Source of the DNA: Betaproteobacteria bacterium
Lineage (GTDB): Bacteria > Pseudomonadota > Gammaproteobacteria > Burkholderiales > SG8-41
NCBI GenBank assembly: GCA_029864385.1
Contig: JAOTTL010000002.1
Location: forward strand, 1 to 49,120
DNA length: 49,120 nt
Reading direction: 5' to 3'
In this document: in pieces, positions 4,378 through 46,448 of the stretch
Numbering within the stretch: the first letter of the stretch is position 1
How the letters are laid out: every line of letters starts with the position of its first letter
Program-made: the position numbers and the translations under genes
Notes under the pieces: generated by a model
Databases searched by the model: none
Told to the model about the DNA's origin: nothing
What the model saw: the letters and a program-made list of their open reading frames with translations, nothing else

Positions 4378-4395
4378 ACTAAGCGCTCGCACTCT

Positions 4396-5658
4396 ATGCA
4401 GCACATACTTGTCGTAGACGACGAAGTCGGTATTCGCGAGCTGCTCTCCGAGATCCTCGGCGACGAGGGTTATCAGGTGCGGCTGGCGGAGAACGCGAGT
4501 GAGGCACGCACGCAGCGAACGCGCGCGCGCCCGGACTTGGTGTTGCTCGATATCTGGATGCCGGATACTGATGGCATCACCCTGCTCAGGGAGTGGTCGA
4601 GCGCCGGCCTCCTCACGATGCCGGTCGTCATGATGTCGGGGCATGGCACGATCGACACGGCGGTCGAGGCCACGCGCATTGGCGCCTACGATTTCCTCGA
4701 GAAGCCAATCGCCCTGCAAAAGCTGCTCGCGACGGTCGGCCGCGCCCTGAAGCACGGTGGCGAGCAGTCACGGCCCGCCCTGTCGCTTGCGAGTCTCGGG
4801 CGGGGCGCCCTGATTACCGAGCTCAAACAGCGCCTGGAGCGGGTCGCGAATCTGCGCACGCCCCTTCTCCTCACTGGCGAGCCCGGCTGCGGCATCGAGC
4901 TGGCCGCGCGCTTTCTTCACCAACGCAATACGCCGTGGGTTGCGCCGGAGAATCACGGCGTGCTGGCCGAGGCGCCGCTCGAGCTGCTCGGGCAGGCGCG
5001 CGAGGGCAACGTGTTCCTGCACGAGATTGCGGACCTTTCGCGCGTCGAGCAGAAGGGCCTCTTGCTGGCCGTCTCAAAGCTCGAGCGCTACAACGTGCGG
5101 CTCATCTGCGGCGCCTCCCGTGACCTGGCCGAGTTGGTGGCGAGTGGTGTCTTTGACAGCCGCCTCTTCGGCGCGCTCGCTGCGACCATGATCCGGGTGC
5201 CGAGCCTGCGCGAGCACCGGGAGGACGTGCCTGACCTCGCAAACCTGATGCTAACTCGGATGGTAGAGGCGAAGGAAATCCCGCCGCGGCAGTTTTCGAC
5301 CGGCGCGCTAAATTCGTTGCGCAATTTCGACTGGCCGGGAAACCTCACTCAGCTCGAAAGTGTGGTGCGCACGCTGGCGACGACGGCCTCCGCAGAGCAG
5401 ATCTCTCTCGAGGACGTGAGCCAAGGTCTCCCGCAACCCCCCCCGGCCGCGAATGTTGCCCACGACCTGCCATTCGACCTGCCGCTGCGGGATGCGCGCG
5501 ACGCCTTTGAGCGCGTCTACTTCGAGTATCACATCGCGCGGGAAGGCGGCAACATCAGCCGTGTCGCCGACAGTGTCGGCCTGGAGCGCACCCACCTCTA
5601 TCGCAAGCTGAAGCAGCTTGGCATCCGGCTCGCAAGAAAGAACGGCGAAGCGGCCTAG
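4396..5658 (+). CDS. ntrX: NtrX-type response regulator (receiver + degenerate AAA+ + Fis-type HTH)
   Basis: Receiver domain (ILVVDDE..DLVLLDIWMPDTDG), central NtrC-like domain, C-terminal HTH (GNISRVADSVGLERTHLYRKLKQLGI). Walker A reads GEPGCGIE and no GAFTGA loop is visible. Confidence 0.85.
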   Translation: MQHILVVDDEVGIRELLSEILGDEGYQVRLAENASEARTQRTRARPDLVLLDIWMPDTDGITLLREWSSAGLLTMPVVMMSGHGTIDTAVEATRIGAYDFLEKPIALQKLLATVGRALKHGGEQSRPALSLASLGRGALITELKQRLERVANLRTPLLLTGEPGCGIELAARFLHQRNTPWVAPENHGVLAEAPLELLGQAREGNVFLHEIADLSRVEQKGLLLAVSKLERYNVRLICGASRDLAELVASGVFDSRLFGALAATMIRVPSLREHREDVPDLANLMLTRMVEAKEIPPRQFSTGALNSLRNFDWPGNLTQLESVVRTLATTASAEQISLEDVSQGLPQPPPAANVAHDLPFDLPLRDARDAFERVYFEYHIAREGGNISRVADSVGLERTHLYRKLKQLGIRLARKNGEAA

Positions 5659-5689
5659 GCGGTAAAGGGAGCGAGCCAGGTCGCGCTCA

Positions 5690-5714
5690 CCGGGTTCTTG
5701 CCCCGGGTTTTTTC
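5690..5714 (+). terminator. weak rho-independent terminator candidate after ntrX
   Basis: CCGGG (5690-5694) / CCCGG (5702-5706) stem followed by the T-run 5708-5713. Confidence 0.35.
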
Positions 5715-5791
5715 AATTCAGCGAGGCAGCCCTACGACCCCGGTTTATAATTGGTGCACTTCCGCTTTGCCCCCCGCAAGGACTAGACAGG

Positions 5792-7792
5792 ATGAGTTCC
5801 CGCGCTGAACTGGCCAACGCGATCCGCGCGCTGGCGATGGACGCCGTGCAACAGGCCAAATCCGGGCACCCGGGCATGCCGATGGGCATGGCGGAGATCG
5901 CGGAGGTCCTCTGGAACGATCACCTGCGTCACAACCCGGGCAATCCGTCCTGGCCGAACCGCGACCGCTTCGTCCTTTCGAACGGGCACGGCTCGATGTT
6001 GTTGTACTCGGTGCTTCATCTCACGGGCTACGACCTGCCCATGGCGGAGCTCAAGCGCTTTCGGCAAATGCACTCGAAGACGCCGGGTCATCCCGAGTAC
6101 GGCTGTGCGCCAGGGATCGAGACGACGACCGGCCCGCTCGGACAAGGCCTCGGCAATGCCGTGGGCCTGGCGCTCGCCGAACGCCTGCTCGCAGCCGAGT
6201 TCAATCGACCGGGGTTCGACATCGTCGACCACCATACCTACGCTTTTCTCGGCGACGGCTGCATGATGGAAGGCATCTCGCACGAGGTTTGCGCGCTCGC
6301 CGGAACTCTGGGACTGGGCAAGCTCGTCGCCATCTACGACGACAACAGCATCTCCATCGATTCGGGAAAAGGCCAGATCCGGCAATGGTACACGGACGAC
6401 GTCAAGCGGCGATTCGAGGCGTATGGCTGGCAGGTGATCCCGAACGTCGATGGTCATGACGTCGACGCGGTGAACCGGGCGATCAGGAAGGCGCGTCGCG
6501 AGAAATCCAGGCCGACGTTGATCTGTGCAAAGACGATCATTGCGAAAGGGGCACCGTCCAAGGCCAACACCGGCGCCGCGCACGGTGAACCGCTCGGCGA
6601 AAAGGAGATTACCGCGACCCGCGAGGCACTGGGCTGGGGGCACCCGCCTTTCGAGCTGCCGGCAGCCGTGTACGAAGGCTGGGACGCGCGCAAGCGCGGC
6701 GCCTCCGCCGAAAGGCGCTGGAAACGCCTGATTTCCGCCTACGAGAAGCAATATCCCGCCGAGGCCGGGGAATTCTGGCGGCGCAGCGCGGGCGAGCTGC
6801 CGAGCGATTTCGCGGCGCGGGTCGAGGCGTTGGTCAAGGAAACGGACTCGAAAGCGGAAACGCTTGCCACGCGCAAGGCATCGCAAAATGCGCTCGAAGT
6901 CCTGGTGGCAATGCTGCCGGAACTCGTGGGCGGCTCGGCCGACCTGACAGTTTCAAACCTGACCATGGTGAATGCATCGAAAGTGGTTGGGCACGAGGGC
7001 GGCGGCAATTATCTTTTCTACGGCGTGCGTGAATTCGGCATGTGCGCGATCATGAGTGGGCTGACACTGCATGGAGGCCTGATTCCGTACGGCGGCACGT
7101 TCCTCGTTTTCTCGGACTACGCGCGGAATGCGTTGCGCATGGCGGCGCTGATGGGGGTGCGCGTAATTTATGTATTTACGCACGACTCGATCGGCTTGGG
7201 CGAGGATGGGCCCACGCATCAGCCGATCGAGCATGCCGCAACGCTCAGGCTCATGCCCAACATGCACGTGTGGCGGCCGTGCGACACGGTGGAGTCGGTC
7301 GTGGCATGGTCTGCCGCGCTAGAGCGCAAAGATGGCCCGACGAGCCTGTTGCTCACGCGCCAGGCCGCGCCGTTCATGAAGCGCGCACCGGAACAGCTCG
7401 ACCTCATCCGGCGCGGCGGGTATGTGCTAGCGGACGCGGCCGGAGTGCCCCCAAGTTGCATCATCATTGCGACCGGCTCCGAGGTTGCGCTGGCGCTCGA
7501 AGCACACCGGCAGCTCGCGGCCGAAGGCATCGGGACACGGGTGGTATCCATGCCCTCAACCAACGTGTTCGATGGGCAGGACGAGGCCTATCGCGCGAGC
7601 GTTTTGCCGCGCGGCGTGCCGCGCGTGGCGGTCGAAGTCGGCGTGCCCGATTATTGGCGTAAGTACGTCGGTCTCGACGGCGCGGTAATCGGCATAGACC
7701 GCTTCGGCGAGTCAGCGCCGGCGGGGGAACTTTTCAAGTACTTCGGCTTCACACCAGAAAACGTTGCCGCCGTGGTGAAGGCGGCGCTTTAA
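5792..7792 (+). CDS. tkt: transketolase
   Basis: [21 protein letters not shown] motif [12 protein letters not shown], full length 666 aa. Confidence 0.95.
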
Positions 7793-15877: not shown

Positions 15878-17413
15878 GTGTCCCACGAAGACCTCCTGAG
15901 GCAGCTCGAGGAGAACACCACCGCCGCGCTTGCGATGGGCGGGCCCGAGAAACTCGCCGAGCGCAAGGCCCAGCGGCTGCTCAATGCGCGCGAGCGCATC
16001 GATTATCTCGTCGACCCGGGGTCCTTCGTCGAATCGGGCCGCTTTGCCCGCGCGATCCGCCCCGAGGTGAGGCACAAGACGCCGGCTGACGGCAAGGTCG
16101 TGGGTTTCGCGCGGATCGGCGGGCGGGAAGTTGCGCTCGTCTCGAACGACTTCACCGTGCTCGGCGCCTCGTCGAGCGTGGTCAACATGAAGAAGATCAA
16201 GCATGTCAAGCAGACCGCGTCCAAGCGCGGTTTGCCGCTGGTCCTGCTTGGCGAGTCCTCGGGCGCACGCATGCCGGACCGCATGGGCGCGGCCGGGCGC
16301 GCGATCATCGCGCAGGATTCCACTGAGTACCAGCGGCTGCGCGAGACCCCCTGGGTTTCTGCGTTGCTCGGCCAGTGCTACGGCTCTTCAACGTGGTACT
16401 CGGCTATGTCCGATTTCGTCGTGATGCGCAAAGGTGCCATCATGGCGATCGCCAGCCCTAGCGTTACCTCCATCGCGATTGGCAAGCCGATCGACCCGGA
16501 GGACCTGGGCGGCTGGAAGCTCCTGACCGGTATCTCCGGGCTGGCCGATCTGGCGGTCGACACTGACGAGCAGGCGCTCGACGCCATCAGGCGATTCCTG
16601 TCCTACCTGCCGAGCCACAGCATGGAGCCGCCGCCGGAGTACCCCGTGCCGGCCGGCTCGGATGAGCCGTGCCGCAAGGTTCTCGATGTCCTGCCCGAGT
16701 CGCGCAACAAGGTCTATGACGGGCGCAAGATCATCGCCGCGATCGCGGATCTCGAGTCGCCCTTCGAACTGAAAGAGCGCTACGGCCGTTCCGTGTCGAC
16801 TGTGTTCGCGCGCCTCGACGGCAAGAGCGTGGGCTTCGTCGCCAACAACCCCCTGTTCAAAGGCGGGGCGCTTGATGCAGACGCGTGCCAGAAGGTCACG
16901 AGCTTCATGGTGCTGTGCGATTCCTTCAACATCCCTCTCGTGTTCCTGGTGGATGTGCCCGGATTCCTGATCGGGCTTGAGGGCGAGATGCGCGGCATGC
17001 CCGGCAAGGTGATCAACTGGATGAATGCACTGACGCAGGTTACCGTGCCCAGGATCACGGTCATCATGCGCAAGAACTATGGCCAGGCGTTCATCAACAT
17101 GGGCGGCGGCAAGAACACCGACGAGGTGGCGTGCTGGCCGATGGCGGATCTGGGATTCATGGATCCGGCGGTCTCCGTCAACGTGCTCTACGGATTGAAG
17201 CGCGAAGACGATCCGGAGCGCTTCAAGGAACTCGTGGCCGAGGTCGAGCGCGACACGGCGCCTTGGGGTCTCGCCGAACTCTACGAAGCACAGAACGTGA
17301 TCGATCCGCGCGATACGCGTCAATTCCTGATTCGCACGTTGCAGGTCCACCGCATGCGCATGAAAAGAGGCGTGGGCGAGCACCTGTTGCGCAACTGGCC
17401 GACGAGCTATTAG
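15878..17413 (+). CDS. acyl-CoA carboxylase carboxyltransferase subunit (paralog 1)
   Basis: GTG start 11 nt after the cupin stop. Carboxyl-transferase domain motifs VSNDFTVLGASSS, FVANNPLFKGGALD, ACWPMADLGFM. About half the residues are shared with 25831..27366, including the identical C-terminus WPTSY. Confidence 0.9.
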   Translation: MSHEDLLRQLEENTTAALAMGGPEKLAERKAQRLLNARERIDYLVDPGSFVESGRFARAIRPEVRHKTPADGKVVGFARIGGREVALVSNDFTVLGASSSVVNMKKIKHVKQTASKRGLPLVLLGESSGARMPDRMGAAGRAIIAQDSTEYQRLRETPWVSALLGQCYGSSTWYSAMSDFVVMRKGAIMAIASPSVTSIAIGKPIDPEDLGGWKLLTGISGLADLAVDTDEQALDAIRRFLSYLPSHSMEPPPEYPVPAGSDEPCRKVLDVLPESRNKVYDGRKIIAAIADLESPFELKERYGRSVSTVFARLDGKSVGFVANNPLFKGGALDADACQKVTSFMVLCDSFNIPLVFLVDVPGFLIGLEGEMRGMPGKVINWMNALTQVTVPRITVIMRKNYGQAFINMGGGKNTDEVACWPMADLGFMDPAVSVNVLYGLKREDDPERFKELVAEVERDTAPWGLAELYEAQNVIDPRDTRQFLIRTLQVHRMRMKRGVGEHLLRNWPTSY

Positions 17414-19330: not shown

Positions 19331-19418
19331 CGTGAAGTTGGGAGATCGGGAGATGGAAAACCGGGAGATCGTGAGATCGGAAAATCGTGAGATCGGGAAA
19401 TCGGGAGATGGAAAAAAC
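19331..19418. repeat. ~11 units of a degenerate 8-nt repeat (GGGAGATC / GTGAGATC / GGAAAATC) upstream of the GDPD gene
   Basis: CGTGAAGT TGGGAGAT CGGGAGAT GGAAAAC CGGGAGAT CGTGAGAT CGGAAAAT CGTGAGAT CGGGAAAT CGGGAGAT GGAAAAAAC. Confidence 0.9.
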
Positions 19419-22434: not shown

Positions 22435-23679
22435 ATGCCAAAGCGGGAAATCGAAGGCGATTGGGTTCTCGGCTGGCCGGACCGGAAACGACCGGCGATC
22501 ATACCGGGCAAGGATGCCGAAGGCCGCGTGATCAATGGCCGTGCGCCGGTGACTGAGCTCGCCGGCTTGATCACCCCGAATGAGGCGTACTACATCGTCA
22601 ATCAACTCGAGGCGCCGGATGCGGTGCATCCGGACGACTGGAAGCTCTCGATCAAGGGTGAGGTCGAGCGCCCGTTCGAGCTCGATTTCGAAAGCCTCAT
22701 GAAACTGCCTGGCCGCAGCGTGCGTGGGGTGACCGAATGTGCTGGCAACGACGCCGGCTTCTTCGACTATCTGCGCAAAGGCGCGAAGAAGCCCTCGCGC
22801 GTCAACCAGCAAGACATGCAGAAGCGCGCCGAGCAACGCGTGAAGGGCGAGCTCCCGTCCAGCGAGGAAATCAGCTCCGAGTCGACGACAACGTGCGCGG
22901 TGAGCGCGGGCGAGTTCACGGGCGTGCCCCTCGTGGAGGTGCTCAAGCGTGCCGGCATGAAGCCGGGTGCCGTCTGCGTGCGCGCGCAGGGATTCGATAC
23001 CGGTCATCCGGACACGGCGGTGATCTATCGCTCGGTGGGGACTCGAGATTTCGAGATTCCGGATCCCGGCGTGATCCACTACGAGAAGGCGCTGCCGCTC
23101 GAGAAAGCGCTCGATCCGGACACGATCCTTGCCTGGGCGCAGAACGGCGAATACTTGTGGCATGTACACGGATCGCCCGTGCGTCTCATCGTGCCGGGAT
23201 GGTCGGGCAACTGGTGGGTGAAGTGGGTCGAGGAGCTCGAAGTGATGAGCACCATGCCCACGCCCTTCTACCAGAGGGAGTACTTCGTTTACGGGGAATC
23301 GGCGCAGGATCCGGAAAAGCCACCGCTGATGGCCATGGGGGTGCGCAATATCATCACTGAGCCGCTCGACGAGGACTCACCGCTTCCGCGCGGCTCCCAC
23401 ATGATTCGCGGGCGTGCCTGGAGCGGAAAGGGTGCGATCACGCGCGTGGAGGTGAGCTTCGACGAGGGCAAGACCTGGACCGACGCTCATCTGGAGGAGC
23501 CGCGCGAGCGGTGGTTGTGGCGGCGCTGGTCATTTCTGTGGGAGGTAGACAAGCCCGGCCAGTACAAGATCATGGCCCGGGCCACTGACGAGACCGGCCG
23601 CGTCCAGCCGCAGACCCCGTGGAATTTCCAGCGCAAGCACTTCGATTGGATCGTGCCCACTGAGATCACTATCGTTTAG
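22435..23679 (+). CDS. sulfite-oxidase-fold molybdopterin oxidoreductase (no signal peptide)
   Basis: Mo-ligand cysteine motif VTECAGN, oxidoreductase molybdopterin-binding domain plus C-terminal Mo-co dimerisation-like domain (ITRVEVSFDEGKTW). RBS AGGGAGGG. No Tat or Sec signal. Confidence 0.85.
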   Translation: MPKREIEGDWVLGWPDRKRPAIIPGKDAEGRVINGRAPVTELAGLITPNEAYYIVNQLEAPDAVHPDDWKLSIKGEVERPFELDFESLMKLPGRSVRGVTECAGNDAGFFDYLRKGAKKPSRVNQQDMQKRAEQRVKGELPSSEEISSESTTTCAVSAGEFTGVPLVEVLKRAGMKPGAVCVRAQGFDTGHPDTAVIYRSVGTRDFEIPDPGVIHYEKALPLEKALDPDTILAWAQNGEYLWHVHGSPVRLIVPGWSGNWWVKWVEELEVMSTMPTPFYQREYFVYGESAQDPEKPPLMAMGVRNIITEPLDEDSPLPRGSHMIRGRAWSGKGAITRVEVSFDEGKTWTDAHLEEPRERWLWRRWSFLWEVDKPGQYKIMARATDETGRVQPQTPWNFQRKHFDWIVPTEITIV

Positions 23680-23768
23680 TGATGAGTGATGAGTGATGAG
23701 TGATGAGTGACGAGTGACGAGTGACGAGTGACGAGTGACCAGCGACCAGTTACCAGTGACGAGTGAGT
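23678..23768. repeat. 13 tandem heptads: 4 x AGTGATG, 4 x AGTGACG, then AGTGACC AGCGACC AGTTACC AGTGACG AGTGAGT
   Basis: Starts inside the Mo-enzyme stop codon (TAG 23677-23679). The complementary words AGCCACC CGTCACC CATCACG lie at 23894-23914, just before etfB. Confidence 0.95.
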
Positions 23769-23929
23769 GGTGCGCAGAAGTCATCTCATTAATCCCCTCT
23801 CCCCGCTGCCGCGGGACGAGGAGTATTGTTGAGACAAGCCCTGGCGACCCGTCAGCGGTGGCCTGTGAATCGAAGCGCCCCGCGCGGTTTGCGAGCCACC
23901 CGTCACCCATCACGCCGTTAGGTCTTGAG

Positions 23930-25830: not shown

Positions 25831-27366
25831 ATGGCATTTGAATCGTTATTGGCAGAGTACGAAGCGCGGCGCGCAAAGGCGCTCGCGGGCGGCGGCGCTG
25901 AGAAGTACGCCAAACGCAAGGCGGCTGGCGTCTGGAACGCGCGTGAGCGGATCGACTATCTCGTCGACCAAGGAACATTCATCGAGTCGGGCTTGTTCGG
26001 CTCCTCGGGCGTTTATCCGGAGCAGGAAAACGAAACCCAGACCGATGGCAAGCTCGCGGGCTACGCGAAGATCAGCGGGCGCGACGCGTGCGTGGTGGTG
26101 AACGACTTCACGGTGAAGGGCGCTTCCACCAGCTCGACCAACAGCAAGAAGATCGCACAGATGAAGCGCACTGCGACCGAGCGCGGCATGCCGTTGGTTG
26201 TCATCGGAGAGTCCACCGGTGCGCGGCTGCCCGACGCCATGGGCTCGCGCGGCATGGGTCAGCTGCTTGGAAATGACATCACGCAATTCCGGCGCCTGCG
26301 CGAGACGCCGATGGCAGCCGCGGCGTTCGGGCCCTCGTTTGGCTCGTCGACCTGGCTCATGTGTCAGGCCGATTTCGCGGTGATGAAAAAAGGCGCGACG
26401 ATGGCCGTGTCGAGCCCGGGGCTCGTGTCGATGGCCCTTAACGAAAAAGTGGACGCGGAGGAGCTCGGCGGTTGGCGGCTGCATGCCGAGACCACCGGCC
26501 TCATTGACCAGGCGGCGGATACCGAGGAAGAAGTTTTCGACGCGATAAAGAAGTTTCTCTCGTACCTGCCCAGCCATCACATGGAAGCGCCACCCGATGC
26601 GGCGGTGCTGGCCGGTTCGGGTGCCGATATGGAGAAGGTCTTCTCTGTGCTGCCGGAGAGTCGCACGCAGGTGTACGACATGAAGCGCATCATCCGGGCG
26701 ATCGCCGACAAGGATACCGTCTTCGAGTTGAAACCGCGCTTTGGCAAGAGTGCGGTGACGGCGCTCGCGCGCCTCGGCGGGAAAAGCGTGGGTATCGTCG
26801 CCAACAACCCGTTACATCGGGGCGGGGCGCTCGACGGCGATGCCTGCCGCAAGATCGTGGATTTCCTCGTGCTGTGCGACTCGTACAACGTGCCCCTCAT
26901 GATCCTGGCCGACACGCCGGGCTTCCAGATCGGAACCGAAGCCGAGAAGGCGGGGGCGCCGGGTAAGATCATGAACTTCATGAACGCGATGACACTGGTC
27001 ACGGTGCCGCGCGTATCCGTCATCATTCGCAAAAGCTATGGCCGCGCCTACGTCTGCATGGGAGGTGGCCGGCACTCCGATGAGATCGCAGCGTGGCCCA
27101 CGGCCGAAGTGAGCTTCATGAGCCCCGAGTTCGCGACCAAGATCGTCCACGGCGTGGGAGCGGGCGAGCCGGGGTTCGAAGAGGCGCTGGCCAAGATCCG
27201 GAAGGGCGCCGATGTCTGGGGGCTTGCCGCCGTTTACGCTGCGCAGGCGGTGATCCGGCCCGAACAGACGCGCGATTACCTGATTCGCATGCTCGATGTG
27301 CACCGGTTGCGGATCACGAAAGGCGTCGGGCAGCACTTGATGCGCGCCTGGCCCACTTCTTACTAA
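25831..27366 (+). CDS. acyl-CoA carboxylase carboxyltransferase subunit (paralog 2)
   Basis: VVNDFTVKGASTS, IVANNPLHRGGALD, AAWPTAEVSFM, C-terminus WPTSY. Start at ATG 25831 (MAFESLLAEYE..). Confidence 0.9.
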   Translation: MAFESLLAEYEARRAKALAGGGAEKYAKRKAAGVWNARERIDYLVDQGTFIESGLFGSSGVYPEQENETQTDGKLAGYAKISGRDACVVVNDFTVKGASTSSTNSKKIAQMKRTATERGMPLVVIGESTGARLPDAMGSRGMGQLLGNDITQFRRLRETPMAAAAFGPSFGSSTWLMCQADFAVMKKGATMAVSSPGLVSMALNEKVDAEELGGWRLHAETTGLIDQAADTEEEVFDAIKKFLSYLPSHHMEAPPDAAVLAGSGADMEKVFSVLPESRTQVYDMKRIIRAIADKDTVFELKPRFGKSAVTALARLGGKSVGIVANNPLHRGGALDGDACRKIVDFLVLCDSYNVPLMILADTPGFQIGTEAEKAGAPGKIMNFMNAMTLVTVPRVSVIIRKSYGRAYVCMGGGRHSDEIAAWPTAEVSFMSPEFATKIVHGVGAGEPGFEEALAKIRKGADVWGLAAVYAAQAVIRPEQTRDYLIRMLDVHRLRITKGVGQHLMRAWPTSY

Positions 27367-27372
27367 TCGAGA

Positions 27373-27468
27373 AGTGATGATAGAGGGTGATGAGAAATGG
27401 TGATGAAAAATGGTGATGAGAAAGCCGCACCGCCGACTTAACGGTTGGCCATCACCAGTACTCGTCAC
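27373..27468. repeat. 4 x 13-nt array (AGTGATGATAGAG GGTGATGAGAAAT GGTGATGAAAAAT GGTGATGAGAAAG) plus inverted arm CCATCACCAGTACTCGTCAC
   Basis: Left arm 27373-27424, right arm 27449-27468, in the CT2-BC spacer. Confidence 0.9.
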
Positions 27469-27521: not shown

Positions 27522-28871
27522 ATGTTCAATAAGGTTTTGGTGGCGAATCGGGGGGCGGTGGCGGCAAGGGTGCTGCGCGCGCTCTACGAGCTCGGCGTGA
27601 AGAGCGCGGCGGTGTACTCCGAGGCGGACTATGGCGCGCCCTATCTCGAACTCGCGAGCGAGACGTACGCGATTGGGGCGGCGCCAGCACGCGAAAGCTA
27701 CCTTAACCAGGACGCACTGCTTGAGGTGATCGGGCGTTCAGGGGCGGAGGGCGTGCATCCGGGCTACGGTTTCTTGTCGGAGAACGCCGAGTTTGCGCAG
27801 CGTGTGCTCGATGCCGGGGCGCGCTTCATCGGTCCTTCTCCCAAGTGGATCTCGGCGATGGGTCACAAGACCAGGGCGCGCGAGCTCGCGGCGCACTACG
27901 GCATGCCGGTCGCGCGGGGCTCAGAGGTGCTGCCTGCGGAGAGCGACGCGGTGCTGGCGGCGGCGCGCGCAATCGGGTTTCCGGTGCTGGTCAAGCCCGC
28001 CGGTGGGGGCGGCGGCATCGGAATGCTGCCCGCCAAGGACGAAAGCCAGCTCCTCGAGGCCGTCGAGCGCTCGCGGTCGATGGCGTCGCGCGGCTTCGGC
28101 AATGCCGAGGTTTACCTCGAGCGCCTGATCGAGCGGCCGCGCCATATCGAGTTCCAGGTTTTGGGCGACACGCACGGCGGCGCGGTGCATCTTTTTGAGC
28201 GGGACTGCTCGACACAGCGGCGCAACCAGAAAGTGATCGAAGAAGCGCCGGCACCGGCAATCCTTCGCAGCGACGTGGAATCGATGGCTGCGCGCGTGGC
28301 ATCCATCGTCCGCGAGATAGGATACGACAACATCGGTACGGTGGAGATGCTCTACGGCCCTGACGGCTCGTTCAGCTTTCTGGAAATGAACACCCGCCTC
28401 CAGGTCGAGCACGGCGTGACCGAGGAGGTGACTGGGGTGGATCTCGTCAAGGCGCAGGTACGTTGCGCCGCGGGCGAGTCGTTGGCAGAGATCCTTCCGC
28501 CGGCCATCGAGTTAAAAGGCCATGCGATCCAGGCGCGGGTTTACGCCGAGGACCCGACAAGCTTCTTTCCGTCGCCCGGAAAGCTGAAAGTGTTCCGGCC
28601 GCCGCAGGATCCGGAAATTCGGGTCGAGACTGGCTATGCCGAGGGCCGTGACGTGACGCCCCATTACGACCCGATGATCGCCAAAGTGATCGTGCATGCC
28701 GCAACGCGGGCGCAGGCGATCGAGCGGCTGATCGAGGCGCTGGAGGTGTTCGAGATTCAGGGCCCCAAGAACAACATTCCAGCGGTGCTGGCCGTCCTGC
28801 GATCGGACGCATTCCGCTCCGGCGAGGTGCATACGGGACTGATCCCGCAAGTGCTCGGCAAGAAGCCGTGA
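27522..28871 (+). CDS. biotin carboxylase (AccC-like, no BCCP domain)
   Basis: MFNKVLVANRGAVAARV, ATP-grasp glycine loop PAGGGGGIGM, FLEMNTRLQVEHGVTE. Confidence 0.95.
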   Translation: MFNKVLVANRGAVAARVLRALYELGVKSAAVYSEADYGAPYLELASETYAIGAAPARESYLNQDALLEVIGRSGAEGVHPGYGFLSENAEFAQRVLDAGARFIGPSPKWISAMGHKTRARELAAHYGMPVARGSEVLPAESDAVLAAARAIGFPVLVKPAGGGGGIGMLPAKDESQLLEAVERSRSMASRGFGNAEVYLERLIERPRHIEFQVLGDTHGGAVHLFERDCSTQRRNQKVIEEAPAPAILRSDVESMAARVASIVREIGYDNIGTVEMLYGPDGSFSFLEMNTRLQVEHGVTEEVTGVDLVKAQVRCAAGESLAEILPPAIELKGHAIQARVYAEDPTSFFPSPGKLKVFRPPQDPEIRVETGYAEGRDVTPHYDPMIAKVIVHAATRAQAIERLIEALEVFEIQGPKNNIPAVLAVLRSDAFRSGEVHTGLIPQVLGKKP

Positions 28872-28910
28872 ATCGTAAAACGTGAATCGTGAATCGTGAA
28901 TCGTGAATCG
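28867..28910. repeat. 6 heptads CGTGAAT CGTAAAA CGTGAAT x4 starting in the BC stop codon
   Basis: Read directly; four consecutive perfect CGTGAAT units. Confidence 0.95.
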
Positions 28911-29103: not shown

Positions 29104-29814
29104 ATGGACTCGCGGGACCTGATCGTTGAAGCACGCAAGCGGGGGCGGGCGACGCTCGATGAGCAAGCCGGGAAGTGGCTGCTCGCCGCCTACGGCGTCG
29201 CCGTTCCTGCGTCGGTGATCGTGCCGGGCGCTGCGGGGGCCGCTGCAGCGTTCGAGTGCCTCAAGCCGCCGGTGGTGGTCAAGGTCATGTCTCCCGACAT
29301 CCTGCACAAGAGCGAAGCGCGCGCGGTACGGCTCAACGTGGCATCCGCTGTGGAACTGGCGGCGGCATGCGAGGAGATTCTTGCGAACGCGCGCGCTTAC
29401 AAAAACAATGCCCGAATCGACGGGTTCCTGGTGGAGGAGATGGCGCCGGCTGGCCAGGAGATGGTGATCGGCGGCCTGCGCGATCCGCAGTTCGGCCCCC
29501 TCGTCATGGTGGGGCTGGGCGGAATTTTCGTCGAGGTGCTGGCGGATGTCGCTTTCCGCATCTGCCCGATTGAGCGGCGCGACGCCGAGGAAATGCTGGA
29601 CGAGTTGAAGGGCGCGGCAATTCTCAAAGGCGCGCGCGGCAGAAAGCCGGTCTCGCGCGAGGCGATCGTCGAGACGTTGCTCCGGATCGGTGGCGAGCGG
29701 GGGCTTCTCATGGATCACGCGGCCGACATCAAGGAGGCGGACATCAACCCCCTCATCGTTTCCGAACGCGGGGCGGTCGCGGTGGACGCCCGCTTCGTGC
29801 TTTCGAAAGAGTGA
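29104..29814 (+). CDS. ADP-forming acyl-CoA synthetase, beta (ATP-grasp) subunit
   Basis: ATP-grasp pattern VVVKVMSPDILHKSEARAVRLNV..VEEM..GQEMVIGG..DPQFGP..MVGLGGIFVEVL and INPLIV tail. RBS GAGAGGA. Confidence 0.85.
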   Translation: MDSRDLIVEARKRGRATLDEQAGKWLLAAYGVAVPASVIVPGAAGAAAAFECLKPPVVVKVMSPDILHKSEARAVRLNVASAVELAAACEEILANARAYKNNARIDGFLVEEMAPAGQEMVIGGLRDPQFGPLVMVGLGGIFVEVLADVAFRICPIERRDAEEMLDELKGAAILKGARGRKPVSREAIVETLLRIGGERGLLMDHAADIKEADINPLIVSERGAVAVDARFVLSKE

Positions 29815-29943
29815 TGAGTACTGGTGATGAGAGATGGTGATGGGAGATGGTGATGAGAAGCTTTCTCCAACCTGCACCGATGCGAGCGGTTTTCCATCAC
29901 CAGTTTCCATCACCATTAATCATCACCATTAATCATCACCATC
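29811..29943. repeat. inverted 13-nt word arrays between the acyl-CoA synthetase beta and alpha genes
   Basis: Left 29811-29860: GTGATGAGTACTG GTGATGAGAGATG GTGATGGGAGATG GTGATGAGAAG. Right 29894-29943: CCATCACCAGTTT CCATCACCATTAAT CATCACCATTAAT CATCACCATC. 33-nt spacer. Confidence 0.95.
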
Positions 29944-32934: not shown

Positions 32935-33240
32935 ATGATGGACCCGACGAACTTGTTGATCGTGCTCATGTTGGGCGCGCTTCCGGCGACGGGGCCCGCT
33001 CATTCCGAAACTTTTTCCACTCCACGCATCGAGCACCGGCAGGAATGGCAGCAGCAGCGCATCAGCCACGGCGTTGCCTCGGGCGCGCTCACCAGAAGAG
33101 AAGCGGCGCGCCTGCAGCAAAAGCAGGCGCGCATCGAGCGAGCCGAGCACCGGGCACTGGGCGATGGCAAGTTGACCAGAAAGGAACGCGCCCGAATCGA
33201 GCACCGGCAGGACCAGGCGAGCAAGCACATTTATCGCTAA
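32935..33240 (+). CDS. small secreted protein with two LTxxExARI-type helical repeats
   Basis: RBS GGAG before ATG 32935; signal peptide MMDPTNLLIVLMLGALPATGPAHS. Internal repeat RIEHRQ.....G.LTRREAARL / G.LTRKERARIEHRQ. Confidence 0.5.
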   Translation: MMDPTNLLIVLMLGALPATGPAHSETFSTPRIEHRQEWQQQRISHGVASGALTRREAARLQQKQARIERAEHRALGDGKLTRKERARIEHRQDQASKHIYR

Positions 33241-33254
33241 AAGCACGACTGAGC

Positions 33255-33290
33255 AACGGCGGGAAAGTGATTGTCTCGCCGTTTGTTATC
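33255..33290 (+). terminator. terminator-like hairpin after the small secreted protein gene
   Basis: AACGGCG (33255-33261) / CGCCGTT (33277-33283), followed by TGTTAT. Confidence 0.35.
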
Positions 33291-33389
33291 GGCCGCGCCA
33301 AAGCGCAGCCGGATCCTCATCGCTATGGCGCTGAGTATTCACCGTTGGTTCTTACCAGGCTCTGATTGGCGAGCTCTGCCTCATGTACA

Positions 33390-33755
33390 ATGACCGGCGG
33401 TCAATACAGCCAGGCGCGTGAGGAGAGCGTGGACACGCTGCAAGTCGGGATGAGGCACACCGTGGAGTGGGAAGTCACGGAAAAACTTTGTACGAGCCGA
33501 GGCGAATACAAAGTTTTCTCCACGCCGTCGATGACGCAGTTCGTCGAGATGGCGTCCCAGAGCCTCGCCGCGCCGCATCTCAAGCCCGGCCAGGGGCAGG
33601 TCGGCATCTCGGTCAACATCCGGCATCTCGCGCCCACTCCGATCGGCAAGAACGTGCGGGCCGACGTGGAGCTGATCGGCATCGACCGGCGCAGGCTCGC
33701 CTTCAAGGTCAAGGTGTTCGACGACGTCGAACAGGTGGGCGAAGCCGAGCACTAG
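33390..33755 (+). CDS. hotdog-fold thioesterase (FlK-like), apparently 3'-truncated
   Basis: VGMRHTVEWEVTE..FSTPSMTQFVEMAS..GISVNIRHLAPTPIG..V.A.VELIGIDRRRLAFKVKVFDDVEQVGEAEH-stop. As I recall them, family members continue with ERxxV plus ~15-20 aa after this His. Confidence 0.65.
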   Translation: MTGGQYSQAREESVDTLQVGMRHTVEWEVTEKLCTSRGEYKVFSTPSMTQFVEMASQSLAAPHLKPGQGQVGISVNIRHLAPTPIGKNVRADVELIGIDRRRLAFKVKVFDDVEQVGEAEH

Positions 33756-34045
33756 CAGCCTGTCGGACTCGACGGTCCACAGGCTGCTTAGGGCAAAACC
33801 GCCTGAGGATTTGGCATGAATCTGAACCAAATGACCTCCTCTTGCCCCGCTCCGTTGGAGTCGGATCGAATTCATGTTCCTCTAAGTCTTTCTTGTCGTT
33901 GTAATGCCGGCGGTTTTGCCTCAGGAGTTTGTCAGACCAAAGTCCGACAAACTCCTCGCGGTTCGTGATCGATATGGACAAGTACCTCGAGCGGTTAAGG
34001 AAGAAACTCGAACCGAAGAGATAGAGAGAGAAACAAGAAGTCTAA

Positions 34046-34077
34046 TTGAACCGCCAAGACGCGAAGCACGCCAGGAA
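34046..34077 (-). repeat. reverse-oriented copy of the TTGGCG..GGCGGTTCAG block
   Basis: The reverse complement TTCCTGGCGTGCTTCGCGTCTTGGCGGTTCAA matches 37922-37953 at 26 of 32 positions. Confidence 0.8.
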
Positions 34078-34092
34078 TTCAAGAATTAAATG

Positions 34093-34167
34093 GCTTAACG
34101 CCCCCGATGAGGGGCTGCGGGGACCGCGCAGCGCGTCACGCAGTTCCTCTCGATCGGCATGTTAGGC
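34093..34167 (-). mobile_element. attC-like recombination site (candidate)
   Basis: On the minus strand the site reads GCCTAAC...61 nt...GTTAAGC, matching RYYYAAC / GTTRRRY. The 75-nt site folds by hand into an imperfect hairpin with paired outer and inner boxes, a CCC bulge and one extrahelical G (34152). Confidence 0.55.
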
Positions 34168-34631
34168 GGCGCTAAGGCCGTTATTCCAGCGGCCTCAAGA
34201 CGTAGCGGTCGAGCGAACCGAAGCCTTACTGGTACGCCAACTCCAGATGGCTGACGCAATTAAAGCCAGAAGTCCAAGGGTCTCGACGATCTTGTTGAAG
34301 AAGATGTACATGCTCCCGACGATAACAACCGCGCCGAGAACCGACAGAATCATTGGCCCAAGAACGTGATGTTTTCTATATCCCAGAAAAACGAAACCCA
34401 GCGTGAGCACCGCAAACAGGCTGACCACCGCTGCTTGAATGTGCGGGTTAATGGCGATGGTGATGCCAAAAACTGAAAGAACAGCGACGACTATAAACAG
34501 GCCATTACATGCAATGAACGCCAGAATAGCCGCGGCACCCGGCAGCCAACCCAGTTTTCCCGAGCCCTTTTGCGTGTCAGCGGCCATAGCTCACCTCTTT
34601 CACATTGCGAACTGTTTTGTCAAAAGCCTAA
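34099..34631 (-). mobile_element. candidate integron-type gene cassette (533 nt, G|TT to G|TT) carrying the MerC-like ORF
   Basis: GTTAGGC core (plus 34626-34632) lies 38 nt upstream of the ORF start, and the attC-like site begins 27 nt after the ORF stop. GC content is visibly lower than in flanking DNA. No integrase in the window. Confidence 0.5.
34195..34587 (-). CDS. small 4-TM membrane protein, MerC-like
   Basis: Four hydrophobic helices with a central GYRKHH motif, resembling MerC-domain proteins as recalled. Own RBS GAGGTGAGCT-ATG. Lower GC than neighbours. Confidence 0.5.
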   Translation of the reverse strand: MAADTQKGSGKLGWLPGAAAILAFIACNGLFIVVAVLSVFGITIAINPHIQAAVVSLFAVLTLGFVFLGYRKHHVLGPMILSVLGAVVIVGSMYIFFNKIVETLGLLALIASAIWSWRTSKASVRSTATS

Positions 34632-34633
34632 CG

Positions 34634-35674
34634 TCATGTTGAGCGGCGCGCGCTTGTCGCGCGGCCGCTCGAACTAAAGTCAGCCGTGCTGTCAGCGAAT
34701 TTGAGCGTCGCCCCACGCGCGAGAAGTCTCTGGGCCTGTGTCACCATGGCGTCTAGGATGCTCGCCGCACTCGGGCGGTCGTGGATGAGGCCGACGCATT
34801 CGCCGGCCCCCACCGCGACCATATCGAAATCTTGTCGCGACCTCGCTTCCGCGTAAGCTGCGGCGACTGATCCGAACGCCGCGGTTGCGTCCGCTTCACG
34901 GTGCGCCCACTGCTCCGTCAGCTTGTTCTTGAGAACCCGGTACGAGAACTCTGCGGGCCACGAAACGCCCCGCAGAGCGTCAATCGCCTTCGTACGCACC
35001 GTGTCGTCGCCAGTGGCGCGTGCCGCCCTGTCCGATGCGGCCACCGGGATAAGAGCTTCCTCGGAAGACAGGAATCTTGTGCCGACAACGACACCGTCAG
35101 CGCCCAGCATCAACGCCGCGGCAAGCCCTCGACCGTCCGCAATTCCCCCCGCTGCGAGGAGCAGTGTGGTTGGCGCTCTCCTGGCCAGATAGTCGGCCAC
35201 CTCCGGCACGAACGGCAGGGTCGAGCGAAGGGCACCATGACCTCCGGCCTCTGCCCCCTGGGCAACGATCGCGGCGGCGCCAGCCTCAATCGCTTGGTCC
35301 ACATGTCGCAGCGATTGCACCTGGCAGATCAGCTTGGCGCTGCTCCGCAGGATCCGTTCAGCGAACGGCCTCGGGTCACCGAAAGAGAGAAATACGCAAT
35401 AGGGGGAATGGCTAAGCACCTCATCGAGCACGTGGGGAGCGCGTGCCAGCGCCCAGGTGATAAAGCCGACACCGAACTTCTGCCCCTGGACATGTGAGAG
35501 TTCCTGCGTGAGATCAGGTTCGCCGCCAAGGATACCGGCGTAACCTCCACCGACGATTCCGAGCCCACCAGCACCAGACACAGCCGCCGCCAATCGGCCC
35601 CCGGTAATGAGTGCCATGGGGGCGCAAATGATTGGGTGCTGGATTCCGAAAGCATCAGTCAATCGCGTTCGCAT
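34634..35674 (-). CDS. nitronate monooxygenase (NMO / 2-nitropropane dioxygenase family, FMN-dependent)
   Basis: HPIICAPMALITGGRLAAAVSGAGGLGIVG, TIM-barrel FMN motifs, 346 aa. The C-terminal ~20 codons run through a GC hairpin at 34641-34670. Confidence 0.9.
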   Translation of the reverse strand: MRTRLTDAFGIQHPIICAPMALITGGRLAAAVSGAGGLGIVGGGYAGILGGEPDLTQELSHVQGQKFGVGFITWALARAPHVLDEVLSHSPYCVFLSFGDPRPFAERILRSSAKLICQVQSLRHVDQAIEAGAAAIVAQGAEAGGHGALRSTLPFVPEVADYLARRAPTTLLLAAGGIADGRGLAAALMLGADGVVVGTRFLSSEEALIPVAASDRAARATGDDTVRTKAIDALRGVSWPAEFSYRVLKNKLTEQWAHREADATAAFGSVAAAYAEARSRQDFDMVAVGAGECVGLIHDRPSAASILDAMVTQAQRLLARGATLKFADSTADFSSSGRATSARRST

Positions 35675-35696
35675 GTCGATTTCCTACATTAACTTC

Positions 35697-35901
35697 CGTG
35701 AATCGTGAGTCGTAAATCGACGATATCTTGGCGCGCTTGGCGTCTTGGCGGTTCAGTTCTGGTTCTTATCGGCGTGTATCGGCGTCCATCGGCGGCGAAA
35801 AAAACCGTAAATCGTGAATCGAATCTTTGTTCCTCCTCTGTGTTCTCTGTGCTCTCTGTGGCCAATTGCTTTTGACTTTATCCGCGTTCATCTGCGGCTC
35901 A
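35697..35901. repeat. composite modular repeat element, copy A
   Basis: Blocks in order: CGTGAAT-type heptads 35697-35724; TCTTGGCGCGCTTGGCGTCTTGGCGGTTCAG 35726-35756; TATCGGCG x3 35767-35797; heptads 35806-35826; CTCTGTG x3 (9-nt) 35835-35863; GCGTTCATCTGCGGCT 35884-35899. Confidence 0.9.
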
Positions 35902-36780
35902 TTTCCGCTTTGCCATGGTGGACGGATTAAGCGACCGGGGATCGCGCGGCCGCCAACGCCCCGAGTCCACGAGGGACAGGAATTCATCCGTGATGCCGTG
36001 GAAGAGATCCGGCTCCTCGACGTTGACCGCGTGGCCAGTCGCGGGCACGACCGTCAGGCGTGCCGCGGGGCAGACGCGCTTGATGAAGATCGCGGGATCC
36101 AGGCAGTTGTTGTCCTCGTCACCCGTGATGATGTGGGTCGGCACCTTCATCCGCCGCAGTGACCGCTCCAGGCTGTAGAGCGTCGGGCGGCGCGCCTGGA
36201 CACCGCGCAGGGTGTTCGCCGAGCCGAGCGCCGAGTGCGTGGCGAACATCATGCAGAATTCGCGGAAACTCCGCGGGTCCTTGTTCTGCAGCTGCACCCG
36301 GGCCGGCCCGATCTGGTAGACCTTGATGGCTTGTGGCGTGCCAAGCTCGTCGAAGCGACGCGCCATCACCTCGGTGTCGCGCTGGAATTGGTGGCGTTTG
36401 TCCGGGTCTGATCCATAGCCGACGCCAATCGACGTGACTGAGCGCGCCATGTGGGGGTAGCGCAGCCCGAAGTGGAGCGCCGCAAAACCCCCCATCGAGC
36501 AGCCGATGACGTGCGCCTTGCGGATCTTCAGATGCCGCAGCACGTTGGCGATATCGTCGGTCGCGATCGCCTGTGAGTATTGGGAACCCGCCTTCGGCAC
36601 TTCCGAGGGCGGATAGCCGCGCGCGTTGAACACGATGCAGCGATAACGGCGGCTAAAGTAGCGGATCTGCGGCTCCCAGCCGCGCATATCGTGGGCGAAC
36701 TCGTGCACAAAGATGAGGGGTGTGCCGCGGCCCGCTTCTTCGTAGTAAAGCCTCACCCCGTTGGAATCAGCAAAAGGCAT
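35899..36780 (-). CDS. alpha/beta-fold hydrolase (paralog 1)
   Basis: Nucleophile elbow GCSMGG and HEF..D oxyanion region. ATG 36780 is preceded by GGAG. C-terminal tail WRPRDPRSLNPSTMAKRK is shared with paralog 2. Confidence 0.85.
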   Translation of the reverse strand: MPFADSNGVRLYYEEAGRGTPLIFVHEFAHDMRGWEPQIRYFSRRYRCIVFNARGYPPSEVPKAGSQYSQAIATDDIANVLRHLKIRKAHVIGCSMGGFAALHFGLRYPHMARSVTSIGVGYGSDPDKRHQFQRDTEVMARRFDELGTPQAIKVYQIGPARVQLQNKDPRSFREFCMMFATHSALGSANTLRGVQARRPTLYSLERSLRRMKVPTHIITGDEDNNCLDPAIFIKRVCPAARLTVVPATGHAVNVEEPDLFHGITDEFLSLVDSGRWRPRDPRSLNPSTMAKRK

Positions 36781-36800
36781 CACTTACTCCGTTATAGATG

Positions 36801-36990
36801 TGTGAGTCGTGAATCGTAAAAGGTGAATCGTGTTTCTCTCTTTTTGGCGCGCATGGCGCGCATGGCGCCGTGGCGGTTCAGTCCGGAAACTTATCGGCGT
36901 TCATCGGCGGCGAATCAGATCTGTTCGGGGTTCGAAGTTCTGGGTTCTCTATTTCTTTGTATGTATTGATCCGCGTTTATCTGCGGCTCA
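36801..36990. repeat. composite modular repeat element, copy B
   Basis: Heptads TGTGAGT CGTGAAT CGTAAAA GGTGAAT 36801-36832; TGGCGCGCA x2 ..TGGCGGTTCAG 36845-36881; TTATCGGCGTTCATCGGCGGCG 36891-36912; GTTCGGG GTTCGAA GTTCTGG GTTCTCT 36923-36950; GCGTTTATCTGCGGCT 36973-36988. Confidence 0.9.
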
Positions 36991-37869
36991 ATTCCGCTTT
37001 GCCATGGTGGACGGATTAAGCGAACGCGGATCGCGCGGCCGCCAGCGCCCCGAGTCCACGAGCGCGAGGAACTCGTCGGTGATGCGGTTGAAGAAATCCG
37101 GCTCCTCGGCATTCACCACGTGACCGCTGGCAGAGACCACGGTGAGGCGCGCAGCAGGACACATGCGCTTGACAAAGAGGCCGGGGGCGAGCGCGCCTTC
37201 GTCTTCGTCGCCGACCACGATGTGAGTCGGTACGTTCATGCGGCGCAGCCCGGCCTCGAGCTGATAGATGCTGGGCCGCCGTGCCTGCAGCCCGCGCAGC
37301 GTATTGGCGTGGCCGGCAGCCGAGCCCTGCGCAAACTTCGTCCAGAAATCACGGTAGCCGCGCGGGTCCTTGTTCTGCATCTGCACCCGGTTGGGCGCGA
37401 GCTGGTAGACCTTCTTCGCCGCCAGAATGCCGCGCTCTTCGAACAACCGCGCCATCGCTTCGTTGTTGCGCAGAAACTCCTTGCGCTTCGCGGGGTCGGA
37501 ACCCGACCCGGCGCCGACCGCGGTGAGCGAGAGCGCCATTTTCGGATAGCGTATGCCGAAATGCAGCGTTGCCGCCGCGCCCATGGAGCAGCCGATGATG
37601 TGGGCCTTGCGCACGCCCAGGTGTCGCATCACGTTGGCGATGTCGCCGGTTGCGATGTTCTGGGAATAGCCGGCGGGCGTCCGCGGCACGTTTGAGGGCG
37701 GGTAGCCGCGCGCGTTGTAGGCGATGCAGCGGTAGCGCCGGCTGAAGTGCCGCAGTTGCGGCTCCCAGCTGCGCATGTCGCCGGAAAATTCGTGCACGAA
37801 CACGATCGGCGTGCCGCGTCCCGCTTCTTCGTAGTAAAGCTTTACGCCATTGGAATCAGCATAGGGCAT
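36988..37869 (-). CDS. alpha/beta-fold hydrolase (paralog 2)
   Basis: GCSMGA nucleophile elbow. Roughly two-thirds identical to paralog 1 by eye, with a near-identical last ~30 aa. Confidence 0.85.
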   Translation of the reverse strand: MPYADSNGVKLYYEEAGRGTPIVFVHEFSGDMRSWEPQLRHFSRRYRCIAYNARGYPPSNVPRTPAGYSQNIATGDIANVMRHLGVRKAHIIGCSMGAAATLHFGIRYPKMALSLTAVGAGSGSDPAKRKEFLRNNEAMARLFEERGILAAKKVYQLAPNRVQMQNKDPRGYRDFWTKFAQGSAAGHANTLRGLQARRPSIYQLEAGLRRMNVPTHIVVGDEDEGALAPGLFVKRMCPAARLTVVSASGHVVNAEEPDFFNRITDEFLALVDSGRWRPRDPRSLNPSTMAKRN

Positions 37870-37888
37870 CGTTCTCTTCCTTCAAAAG

Positions 37889-38025
37889 CGTGAATCGTGA
37901 ATGGTGAATCGTCTTTCCTTCATCTTGGCGTGCTTGGCGTTATGGCGGTTCAGTTTAATCCAGGTTCTCTCGGCGTCTCGGCGGTTCCCCCGTTGAATAA
38001 TCTGTGTGTATCTGTGGCTAAATCG
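37889..38025. repeat. composite modular repeat element, copy C
   Basis: CGTGAAT CGTGAAT GGTGAAT 37889-37912; TCTTGGCGTGCTTGGCGTTATGGCGGTTCAG 37923-37953; TCTCGGCGTCTCGGCGGTT 37967-37985; AATCTGTGTGTATCTGTGGCTAAATCG 37999-38025. Confidence 0.9.
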
Positions 38026-46284: not shown

Positions 46285-46346
46285 GCGCGATGCGCGGTCT
46301 TCCCGGTTCACGACAGACGTTTCACGAATTTTGTCTGTTTGTATAT

Positions 46347-46362
46347 GGGTTTATCTGCGGCC
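46347..46362 (+). repeat. copy of the GCGTTTATCTGCGGCY motif (GGGTTTATCTGCGGCC)
   Basis: Preceded by TGTCTGTTTGTATAT, similar to the TCTGTG block of the composite element. Confidence 0.8.
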
Positions 46363-46448
46363 AACCTCGGGTCCTGAACTGGTTTCGAGTCAGGACTCGG
46401 GGGCTGTCAGCCCGCGGCGAGAGCGGGCTGGCGCGCCGCCTGCCCAGC

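Follow-up and report, generated by a model that had tools for sequence, protein, structure and literature searches.

Background and placement of the locus

Clusters of attC sites lacking an integron integrase (CALINs) are defined by at least two attC sites within 4 kb and no nearby integron integrase (Cury et al. 2016, PMC4889954), and those with two cassettes form their most frequent size class, with 1362 of 2961 (bioRxiv 10.1101/2022.09.11.507474). Single attC sites lacking an integrase (SALINs) likewise lie outside an integron platform, and the insertion of cassettes at genomic sites (attG) has been described (Loot et al., bioRxiv 10.1101/2022.09.11.507474). CALINs are thought of as cassette reservoirs that can be mobilised by incoming integrons. 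Here we analyzed a 49,120-nucleotide stretch of DNA from a Betaproteobacteria bacterium (assembly GCA_029864385.1, contig JAOTTL010000002.1, positions 1 to 49,120; the whole stretch is called the window below), in which an earlier note, made from the letters alone, had pointed to a solitary gene cassette carrying a MerC-like open reading frame (ORF). We estimate a probability of about 0.88 that positions 34093-35692, read on the minus strand, are a two-cassette CALIN flanked by two native genes, for an alpha/beta hydrolase and a thioesterase.

The locus agrees with the CALINs of Cury et al. (PMC4889954) in having two attC sites of the same orientation, 533 nt apart and each following one ORF, no neighbouring integron integrase, and a cargo unrelated to antibiotic resistance, here an oxidoreductase of the nitronate monooxygenase (NMO)/FabK-like type and a single-cysteine membrane protein of the MerC family. 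Nothing essential separates it from that class; its particulars are an uncultured high-GC soil host, a degenerate outer box in one attC site and the turnover of a cassette in a relative. With SALINs it shares the position of the cassettes outside an integron platform and a left junction at a genomic GTT, and it differs from them in having two attC sites rather than one. CALINs are thus an already described and common class, and the present case is of a kind that integron specialists would expect, so that its value is that of a well-documented example and not of a surprise. It illustrates that a tool-free reading of raw sequence can spot a real attC site, and it replaces the idea of a lone stranded cassette by a two-cassette CALIN, for which a comparison of close relatives gives evidence of cassette turnover.

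The features on which the argument depends are given below. L083 denotes a syntenic relative (GCA_032125385.1; 87% protein identity), GC3 the GC content at third codon positions, and G|TT the predicted crossover point.

34093..34167, minus strand: attC2, the predicted site of the MerC-like cassette; top window match of both attC models, strict pattern passed
34195..34587, minus strand: MerC-like cassette ORF, 130 aa; Pfam PF03203
34099..34631, minus strand: predicted MerC-like recombination unit, 533 nt, from TTAGGC to the G of the attC2 R' box
34626..34685, minus strand: attC1, the predicted site of the NMO cassette; second-best window match of both attC models
34634..35674, minus strand: NMO-family (nitronate monooxygenase/FabK-like) ORF, 346 aa; Pfam NMO, E 5e-35
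34632..35692, minus strand: predicted NMO recombination unit, 1061 nt, from TTAATG to the G of the attC1 R' box
35691..35700, minus strand: left junction between the cassette pair and host DNA, CACGGAAG|TT, from comparison with L083
35899..36783, minus strand: alpha/beta-hydrolase gene of the host flank; GC3 0.83, ortholog in L083 with 89% nucleotide identity
33366..33755, plus strand: FlK-type thioesterase gene of the host flank, convergent with the cassettes; ortholog in L083

Two attC sites in the window

To score attC sites we used two self-built covariance models. The first, R1, was made from nine attC sites of class 1 integrons, with aacA4, arr-3, dfrA14 and dfrA27 held out; the second, R2, from 32 sites, none of them from the window (class 1 integrons, the arrays of contig L006 and of marine contigs, and L052). 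The class 1 sites were true attC sites read downstream of the cassette genes in 14 class 1 integron loci; MAFFT alignments misplaced those of arr-3, dfrA14 and dfrA27, which were dropped from training and used as held-out positives where they were detected. R1 recovered held-out true sites of aacA4 at 36.7-40.2 bits, of arr-3 at 24.4-24.7 and of dfrA27 at 20.7, and under default filters it did not detect the attC of dfrA14. Across 876 kb of unrelated loci, the only R1 matches above 14 bits outside obvious arrays were a lone site in L052 and an NMO-associated attC in L001 (17.6 bits).

When the whole window was scored with R1, every position of both strands included and no filters applied, the best match over the full model length was attC2 (22.7 bits, rough E-value 0.0028) and the second was attC1, also at full length (19.8 bits, rough E-value 0.016). 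R2 ranked the same two sites first (attC2, 38.1 bits, rough E-value 6e-8) and second (attC1, 23.8 bits, rough E-value 5e-4, full model length), and the third-best match, taken as window background, reached only 11.4 bits with R1 and 11.3 bits with R2. Since both models score the two sites far above the next match, the 49-kb window holds exactly two predicted attC sites, in the same orientation and bracketing the MerC-like ORF. The scores are strand-specific: with R2, attC2 falls from 38.1 bits on the minus strand to 10.3 on the plus strand, and for either site the opposite strand gives about 10 bits.

The covariance scan, which the earlier note had proposed, therefore ranks first in the window the very palindrome from which that note started. 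Read on the minus strand (33600-35200), this 75-nt imperfect palindrome (34167-34093) begins 27 nt after the stop codon of the MerC-like ORF and runs from GCCTAAC to GTTAAGC, as had been described. From 5' to 3' it consists of R'' GCCTAAC, the spacer ATGCC, L'' GAT[C]GAG, a GC-rich variable tip, L' CTCATC, the spacer GGGGGC and R' GTTAAGC. The outer boxes fit RYYYAAC...GTTRRRY with six of seven positions paired, the spacers are unequal (5 and 6 nt), and GAT[C]GAG, the inner box on the left, pairs with CTCATC except for one extra base; on the plus (bottom) strand this is the single extrahelical G already noticed at 34152. Crossover is predicted at G34099|T34098. In the bottom-strand fold of attC2 the R boxes are paired (-19.1 kcal/mol), and the folding energy of the palindrome is itself weakly discriminating (z of -1.4 to -2.25 against shuffles). 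A strict box-and-bulge pattern had seven matches in 2.46 Mb of strand, three of which are the attC2 site in different copies, while another falls in the real attC array of L006. A permissive Rfam scan of 33000-36000 returned no attC family and only chance matches (Ysr49 and radC, E above 3). On model scores and predicted architecture taken together, the palindrome is confirmed as a real attC-type site.

The closest described counterpart of attC2 is the attC of aacA4, or aac(6')-Ib, from class 1 integrons (L148, 4617-4688). Both have R'' GCCTAAC, the extra C position (a G on the bottom strand), spacers of 5 and 6 nt and nearly the same inner boxes, (C/G)ATCGAG.GG.AC and GCCCCTCAT, so that their arms can be written jointly as GCCTAAC..ATCGAG.GG.AC / GCCCCTCAT..CGTTA, and their lengths are similar (72 nt in aacA4, 75 nt in attC2). 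Written out, the aacA4 site is GCCTAAC CCTTC CAT[C]GAGGGGGAC ... GCCCCTC ATG TCAAAC GTTAGAT, and attC2 is GCCTAAC ATGCC GAT[C]GAGAGGAAC ... GCCCCTC ATC GGGGGC GTTAAGC. They differ in the variable tip, in the spacer sequences and in the cargo, and the present locus has neither an integrase nor a mobile platform.

The second site, attC1, changes how the upstream junction is to be understood. The earlier note had judged this junction too short for a full site and had seen in it a hybrid or secondary insertion site; because the second-best model match ends exactly at the upstream GTTAGGC, the junction is instead read as the 3' end of a complete 60-nt attC (34685-34626). Its elements are R'' GGCTGAC, the spacer TTTA, L'' GTT[C]GAGCGG, the tip, L' CCGCTC-AAC, the spacer ATGAC and R' GTTAGGC, with spacers of 4 and 5 nt. 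The GCTCAAC that had been taken for an outer box belongs to the L' box, the inner repeat of the 3' side, and the R'' box proper is GGCTGAC, 50 nt upstream of it. The layout of inner boxes, spacers and tip in attC2 and attC1 is that of real attC sites from class 1 arrays. attC1 lies in the 3' tail of the NMO ORF, where it encodes the last ~17 residues, and homologous attC sites stand at the 3' end of the NMO gene in L001 (29.4 bits) and L006 (29.8 bits).

Absence of an integrase and assignment to CALIN

That no integrase lies nearby, as had been noted, was borne out in the window, where tblastn with IntI1 gave no match at E <10 and no signal of an integrase pseudogene, and in the 7 kb beyond its end, where no called gene matched an integrase Pfam family; those 7 kb encode purC, purE, PrpD-type proteins, acyl-CoA dehydrogenases and transporters. 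The IntI1 probe proved 100% identical to annotated intI1 genes in a plasmid collection, and it was sensitive enough to pick up a distant Xer-like recombinase (32% identical) in L074. The integrase-free stretch extends for ~21 kb upstream of the NMO gene and ~34 kb downstream. At the left junction (35691..35700) there is neither an attI site nor an integrase; the junction lies inside an intergenic repeat element of the host, and this repeat and a native gene occupy the place. A complete integron, with intI, an adjacent attI and Pc, was accordingly not found at the locus, where the array adjoins the native hydrolase gene.

The combination of two attC sites and no nearby integrase makes the element a CALIN and not a SALIN, as a second full-length attC lies 459 nt upstream of the one that had been taken to be alone; the two sites fall within the 4 kb of the definition. 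Each cassette has one ORF in the same orientation as its attC, with a ribosome-binding site (RBS). Both units also behave as discrete units: the MerC-like one is found in four upstream contexts, and the neighbours of the NMO one differ between L001, L006 and the window. NMO and MerC-like ORFs turn up again as cassettes in metagenome-assembled genomes whose labels span many phyla.

Several observations weigh against this assignment, or against a functional state of the element. Both covariance models were self-built with a shortened calibration, so their E-values are rough, and the integrase search covered ~56 kb of the 173.5-kb contig. Upstream of the NMO gene the window has neither an attC nor an attI. 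The R' box of attC1, GTTAGGC, is canonical; its R'' box, GGCTGAC, is off consensus at two positions, with GAC replacing AAC, and in the minimum-energy fold of the bottom strand the R boxes of attC1 are unpaired, so that this site may be impaired in recombination. Both R boxes are gone from the L083 counterpart of attC2, a partial match of 15 bits, and in L084 the attC is cut off after the first spacer. The altered R'' box and unpaired R boxes of attC1, together with the losses in L083 and L084, suggest a cassette pair that is decaying rather than active, possibly a relic.

The NMO gene as a second cassette

The earlier note had treated the NMO gene as the neighbour of a solitary cassette. Its composition is aberrant: the NMO ORF has a GC3 of 0.68, against 0.81±0.033 in 30 window genes (z = -3.9). 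Its 5' limit was obtained by comparison with L083 and L001. Identity to L083 stops at ...CACGGAAGTT (35691), and homology to L001, where the NMO gene (86%) has unrelated surroundings, sets in with the TT of G|TTAATG at 35692; as these two breakpoints coincide, they fix the 5' end of the NMO cassette, with its G|TT boundary at 35693|35692. Beyond ...CACGGAAGTT, L083 continues into the host repeat (GGTGAACCGCCAAG...), and the window into the NMO leader. By its predicted boundaries and the attC arrays that hold its homologs, the NMO gene is a cassette with its own attC1, so the word solitary no longer applies to its partner.

More distant NMO relatives without an attC end at ~327-336 aa, and the closest relatives have a similar attC-encoded tail; matches to relatives cover residues 1 to ~326-332.

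Aligned by blastn, L083 shows the hydrolase gene (89% nucleotide identity), the host repeat, a non-homologous block, and then the MerC-like, thioesterase and iron-containing alcohol dehydrogenase genes (86-89%). The non-homologous block is the NMO gene in the window and, in L083 (1155-2128), an ORF for a nucleotidyltransferase-like product of 278 aa, with attC sites of 27.8 and 25.7 bits on either side. The first attC of the L083 block has no ORF of its own upstream.

In L006, a contig from a metagenome-assembled genome labelled as a beta-proteobacterium, an NMO homolog (78%) is flanked by the final two of seven attC sites that form a same-strand array (2188-7072, 20-35 bits). The array has one ORF per cassette, and an alpha/beta hydrolase and a methyltransferase are encoded there besides the NMO homolog. 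This contig ends in the array, and no integrase was found in the 7.6 kb covered. In L001 the NMO gene is followed by the attC of 29.4 bits and then by a different gene. The comparison of the junction with relatives, also proposed in the earlier note, had a mixed outcome: among 80 NMO relatives in species-representative genomes, none had either the MerC-like or the thioesterase gene within 6 kb, and L083, reached only by exact-protein look-up, supports the G|TT breakpoints.

The lone strong attC match in L052 (10418-10506, minus strand, 35 bits) is on a contig that is labelled Gammaproteobacteria and encodes an NMO relative.

The MerC-like cassette and its protein

The features first described for the MerC-like ORF were reproduced on the minus strand: GTTAGGC (34632-34626) lies 38 nt ahead of the ATG at 34587, the RBS (AAGAGG) is at 34599-34594, and 533 nt separate the two G|TT points. 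The gap between the NMO ORF and the MerC-like ATG is 34588-34633, and in it GTTAGGC is followed by a 38-nt leader with the RBS. The lower GC of the ORF also holds, with 52.7% against 64.6%, and a GC3 of 0.58 against 0.81±0.033 in the 30 other window genes (z = -6.9), which marks the ORF as foreign in composition.

Contexts of homologs were examined through exact-protein look-ups and one metagenome scan. The onset of homology in the 5' leader is at (G)TTAGRC in each of four independent upstream contexts, namely ...CATGAC|GTTAGGCTTTTGAC in the window, ...GCAACC|TTAGGCTTTTGGC in L083, ...CAGCCC|GTTAGGC in L084 and ...ATATTGC|GTTAGAC in L088/L094; in L083 the homology starts at the TT because C replaces G there. 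The blastn match of the window with L084 spans window 34633-34156. More distant homologs (43-48% identity) occur between attC sites in the marine contigs L120, L123/124 and L137-139, with attC matches of 19-34 bits that end ~60 nt before the start codons. Judged from these boundaries, the MerC-like ORF is confirmed as a genuine 533-nt integron gene cassette bounded by G|TT.

The name MerC-like stands at the level of the Pfam family (PF03203, 35.1 bits, cutoff 27.6) and fails at that of the equivalog (NCBIfam NF033784, 11 bits, cutoff 140), and the pairwise alignment with MerC of Tn21 is marginal (E = 0.27; the Tn21 probe was verified at 100%), so membership is claimed at the family level only. 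As in MerC of Tn21-type mer operons, the product is a small membrane protein with about four hydrophobic segments whose Pfam MerC match is above the gathering score. The vicinal cysteine pair of the first transmembrane segment of MerC (GCAAC in Tn21 MerC) is needed for mercury binding; the 130-aa protein differs in having a single cysteine, at position 27 in the motif IACNG, and no mer genes nearby. By its profile it is a MerC-family protein without the Cys-x-x-Cys pair of mercury transporters. We collected 83 homologs, and in the 36 that were aligned C27, N28, P48, Q51, E102 and W115 are invariant.

MerC-like homologs outside cassettes (L088 6001-7935, L084 341-6733 and L106-L108) adjoin rhodanese and CDF transporter genes, CzcCBA, or ArsM-like methyltransferases, and ChaC is also among the adjoining genes. 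These neighbours give circumstantial hints that the protein may have a role in the handling of metals or thiols. L088 and L094 keep the GTTAGAC leader boundary and have no attC left. In L092 (1-12384) a MerC-like homolog stands in a one-directional run of small ORFs (acetyltransferase, ABM, GFA, glyoxalase, DM13 and tautomerase) that resembles a cassette array, with attC-like matches that are weak only (14 and 11 bits). In the more distant relative L091 (4036-6411) two hydrolase genes are followed directly by the MerC-like gene, with no NMO gene and no detectable attC.

Proposed mechanism and origin of the element

The first cassette (35692-34632, 1061 nt) contributes the NMO-family oxidoreductase and ends in attC1, and the second (34631-34099, 533 nt) contributes the MerC-family membrane protein, with its own RBS, and ends in attC2. 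The element would work as follows. By analogy with known attC sites, the bottom strand of each would form a single-stranded hairpin in which the R boxes pair and a spacer stays unpaired, with an L box and an extrahelical G; an integron integrase supplied in trans would cut this hairpin at G|TT. Recombination between attC1 and attC2 would then free the MerC-like cassette as a 533-nt circle, and this circle could re-insert at an attI, an attC or a genomic site. The cassettes are presumably transcribed by read-through from upstream; no sigma-70 consensus promoter was found in 33700-36100 by a scan that covers this one promoter type.

Two accounts of how the CALIN arose appear about equally plausible. 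According to the first, which we hold at slightly below even odds, the cassettes were inserted into a genomic GTT acting as a secondary site (attC x attG) by an integrase in trans, and were then inherited vertically. The left junction suits this account, as the host sequence ...CACGGAAG | TTAATG... of the window is matched in L083 by a retained GTT followed by the host repeat, and two-cassette CALINs, the commonest class, have been proposed to arise by attG insertion (bioRxiv 10.1101/2022.09.11.507474). Against it, no empty site was recovered, and the L083 array begins ~120 nt further in than that of the window, an offset that a single shared insertion event does not explain.

The second account, to which we likewise give a substantial share of belief short of one half, sees in the pair the remnant of a once-complete integron whose integrase, attI and other cassettes were lost or were separated from it by rearrangement. 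CALINs are known to arise through loss of the integrase (PMC4889954), and at this locus L083 carries three attC sites and another first cassette, which implies that an integrase was active there in the lineage. The lack of any integrase pseudogene signal in the tblastn search of the window speaks against a remnant, as does the left junction, which runs directly into the host intergenic repeat beside a native hydrolase gene conserved in L083.

An extension of these accounts, which we consider unlikely, is that the hydrolase-thioesterase locus is a recurrent docking site without an integrase, at which cassettes are exchanged in trans at the GTT of the repeat, and that the uncultured soil lineage or its integron pool, as the likeness of attC2 to the aacA4 site may hint, supplied the attC type of the clinical aac(6')-Ib cassette. 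Exchange at one GTT would account for the different first cassettes found at the same spot in two relatives.

The interpretation from which the analysis started, that a native NMO gene received a single attC at its 3' end through a secondary or hybrid site, is now very improbable. It could draw on the greater strength of attC2, on the degenerate R'' box and less canonical fold of attC1, and on the documented insertion of single cassettes into genomes (bioRxiv 10.1101/2022.09.11.507474). It is opposed by the match of attC1 to the full 60-position model at 19.8 and 23.8 bits over a background of at most 11.4, by the foreign GC3 of the NMO gene and its own G|TT boundary at the 5' end, by the homologous attC sites that close NMO homologs have inside arrays, and by the other attC-flanked ORF that takes the place of NMO in L083. 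We give almost no weight to the palindrome being a mere transcription terminator, a REP-like host repeat or a chance hairpin, for although it is GC-rich, lies downstream of an ORF and has a modest folding z, the terminator scan of 34093-34167 found no terminator-like site and no T-tract after the hairpin, both arms are unique in the window with three mismatches allowed, and the attC match is strand-specific (38.1 against 10.3 bits); the scan, the uniqueness of the arms and the attC model scores led us to reject the terminator and the REP-like repeat. The preferred reading of 34093-35692 remains that of a two-cassette CALIN.

Host repeats and other observations

The intergenic repeats of the host comprise runs of GTGAATC/GTGATGA heptamers, CTTGGCG...GGCGGTTCA, and GTTTATCTGCGGC. 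They are packed into the window intergenic regions 19331-19415, 23664-23775, 27351-27422, 28864-28905, 29788-29859, 34040-34075, 35694-35898, 36805-36987, 37886-37991 and 46330-46384, they also occur at orthologous places in L083, and they adjoin both ends of the cassette pair. Those between the hydrolase genes and the NMO gene were considered as attC candidates and rejected, as neither model matched them.

Two further observations concern paralogous genes in the window. Two alpha/beta-hydrolase genes stand in tandem (35899-36783 and 36988-37869), with 76% nucleotide identity and native composition (GC3 0.83). A second pair, of the carboxyltransferase type (15983-16851 and 25936-26810), has stretches that are 81-85% identical and lies ~10 kb apart among genes of acyl-CoA metabolism.

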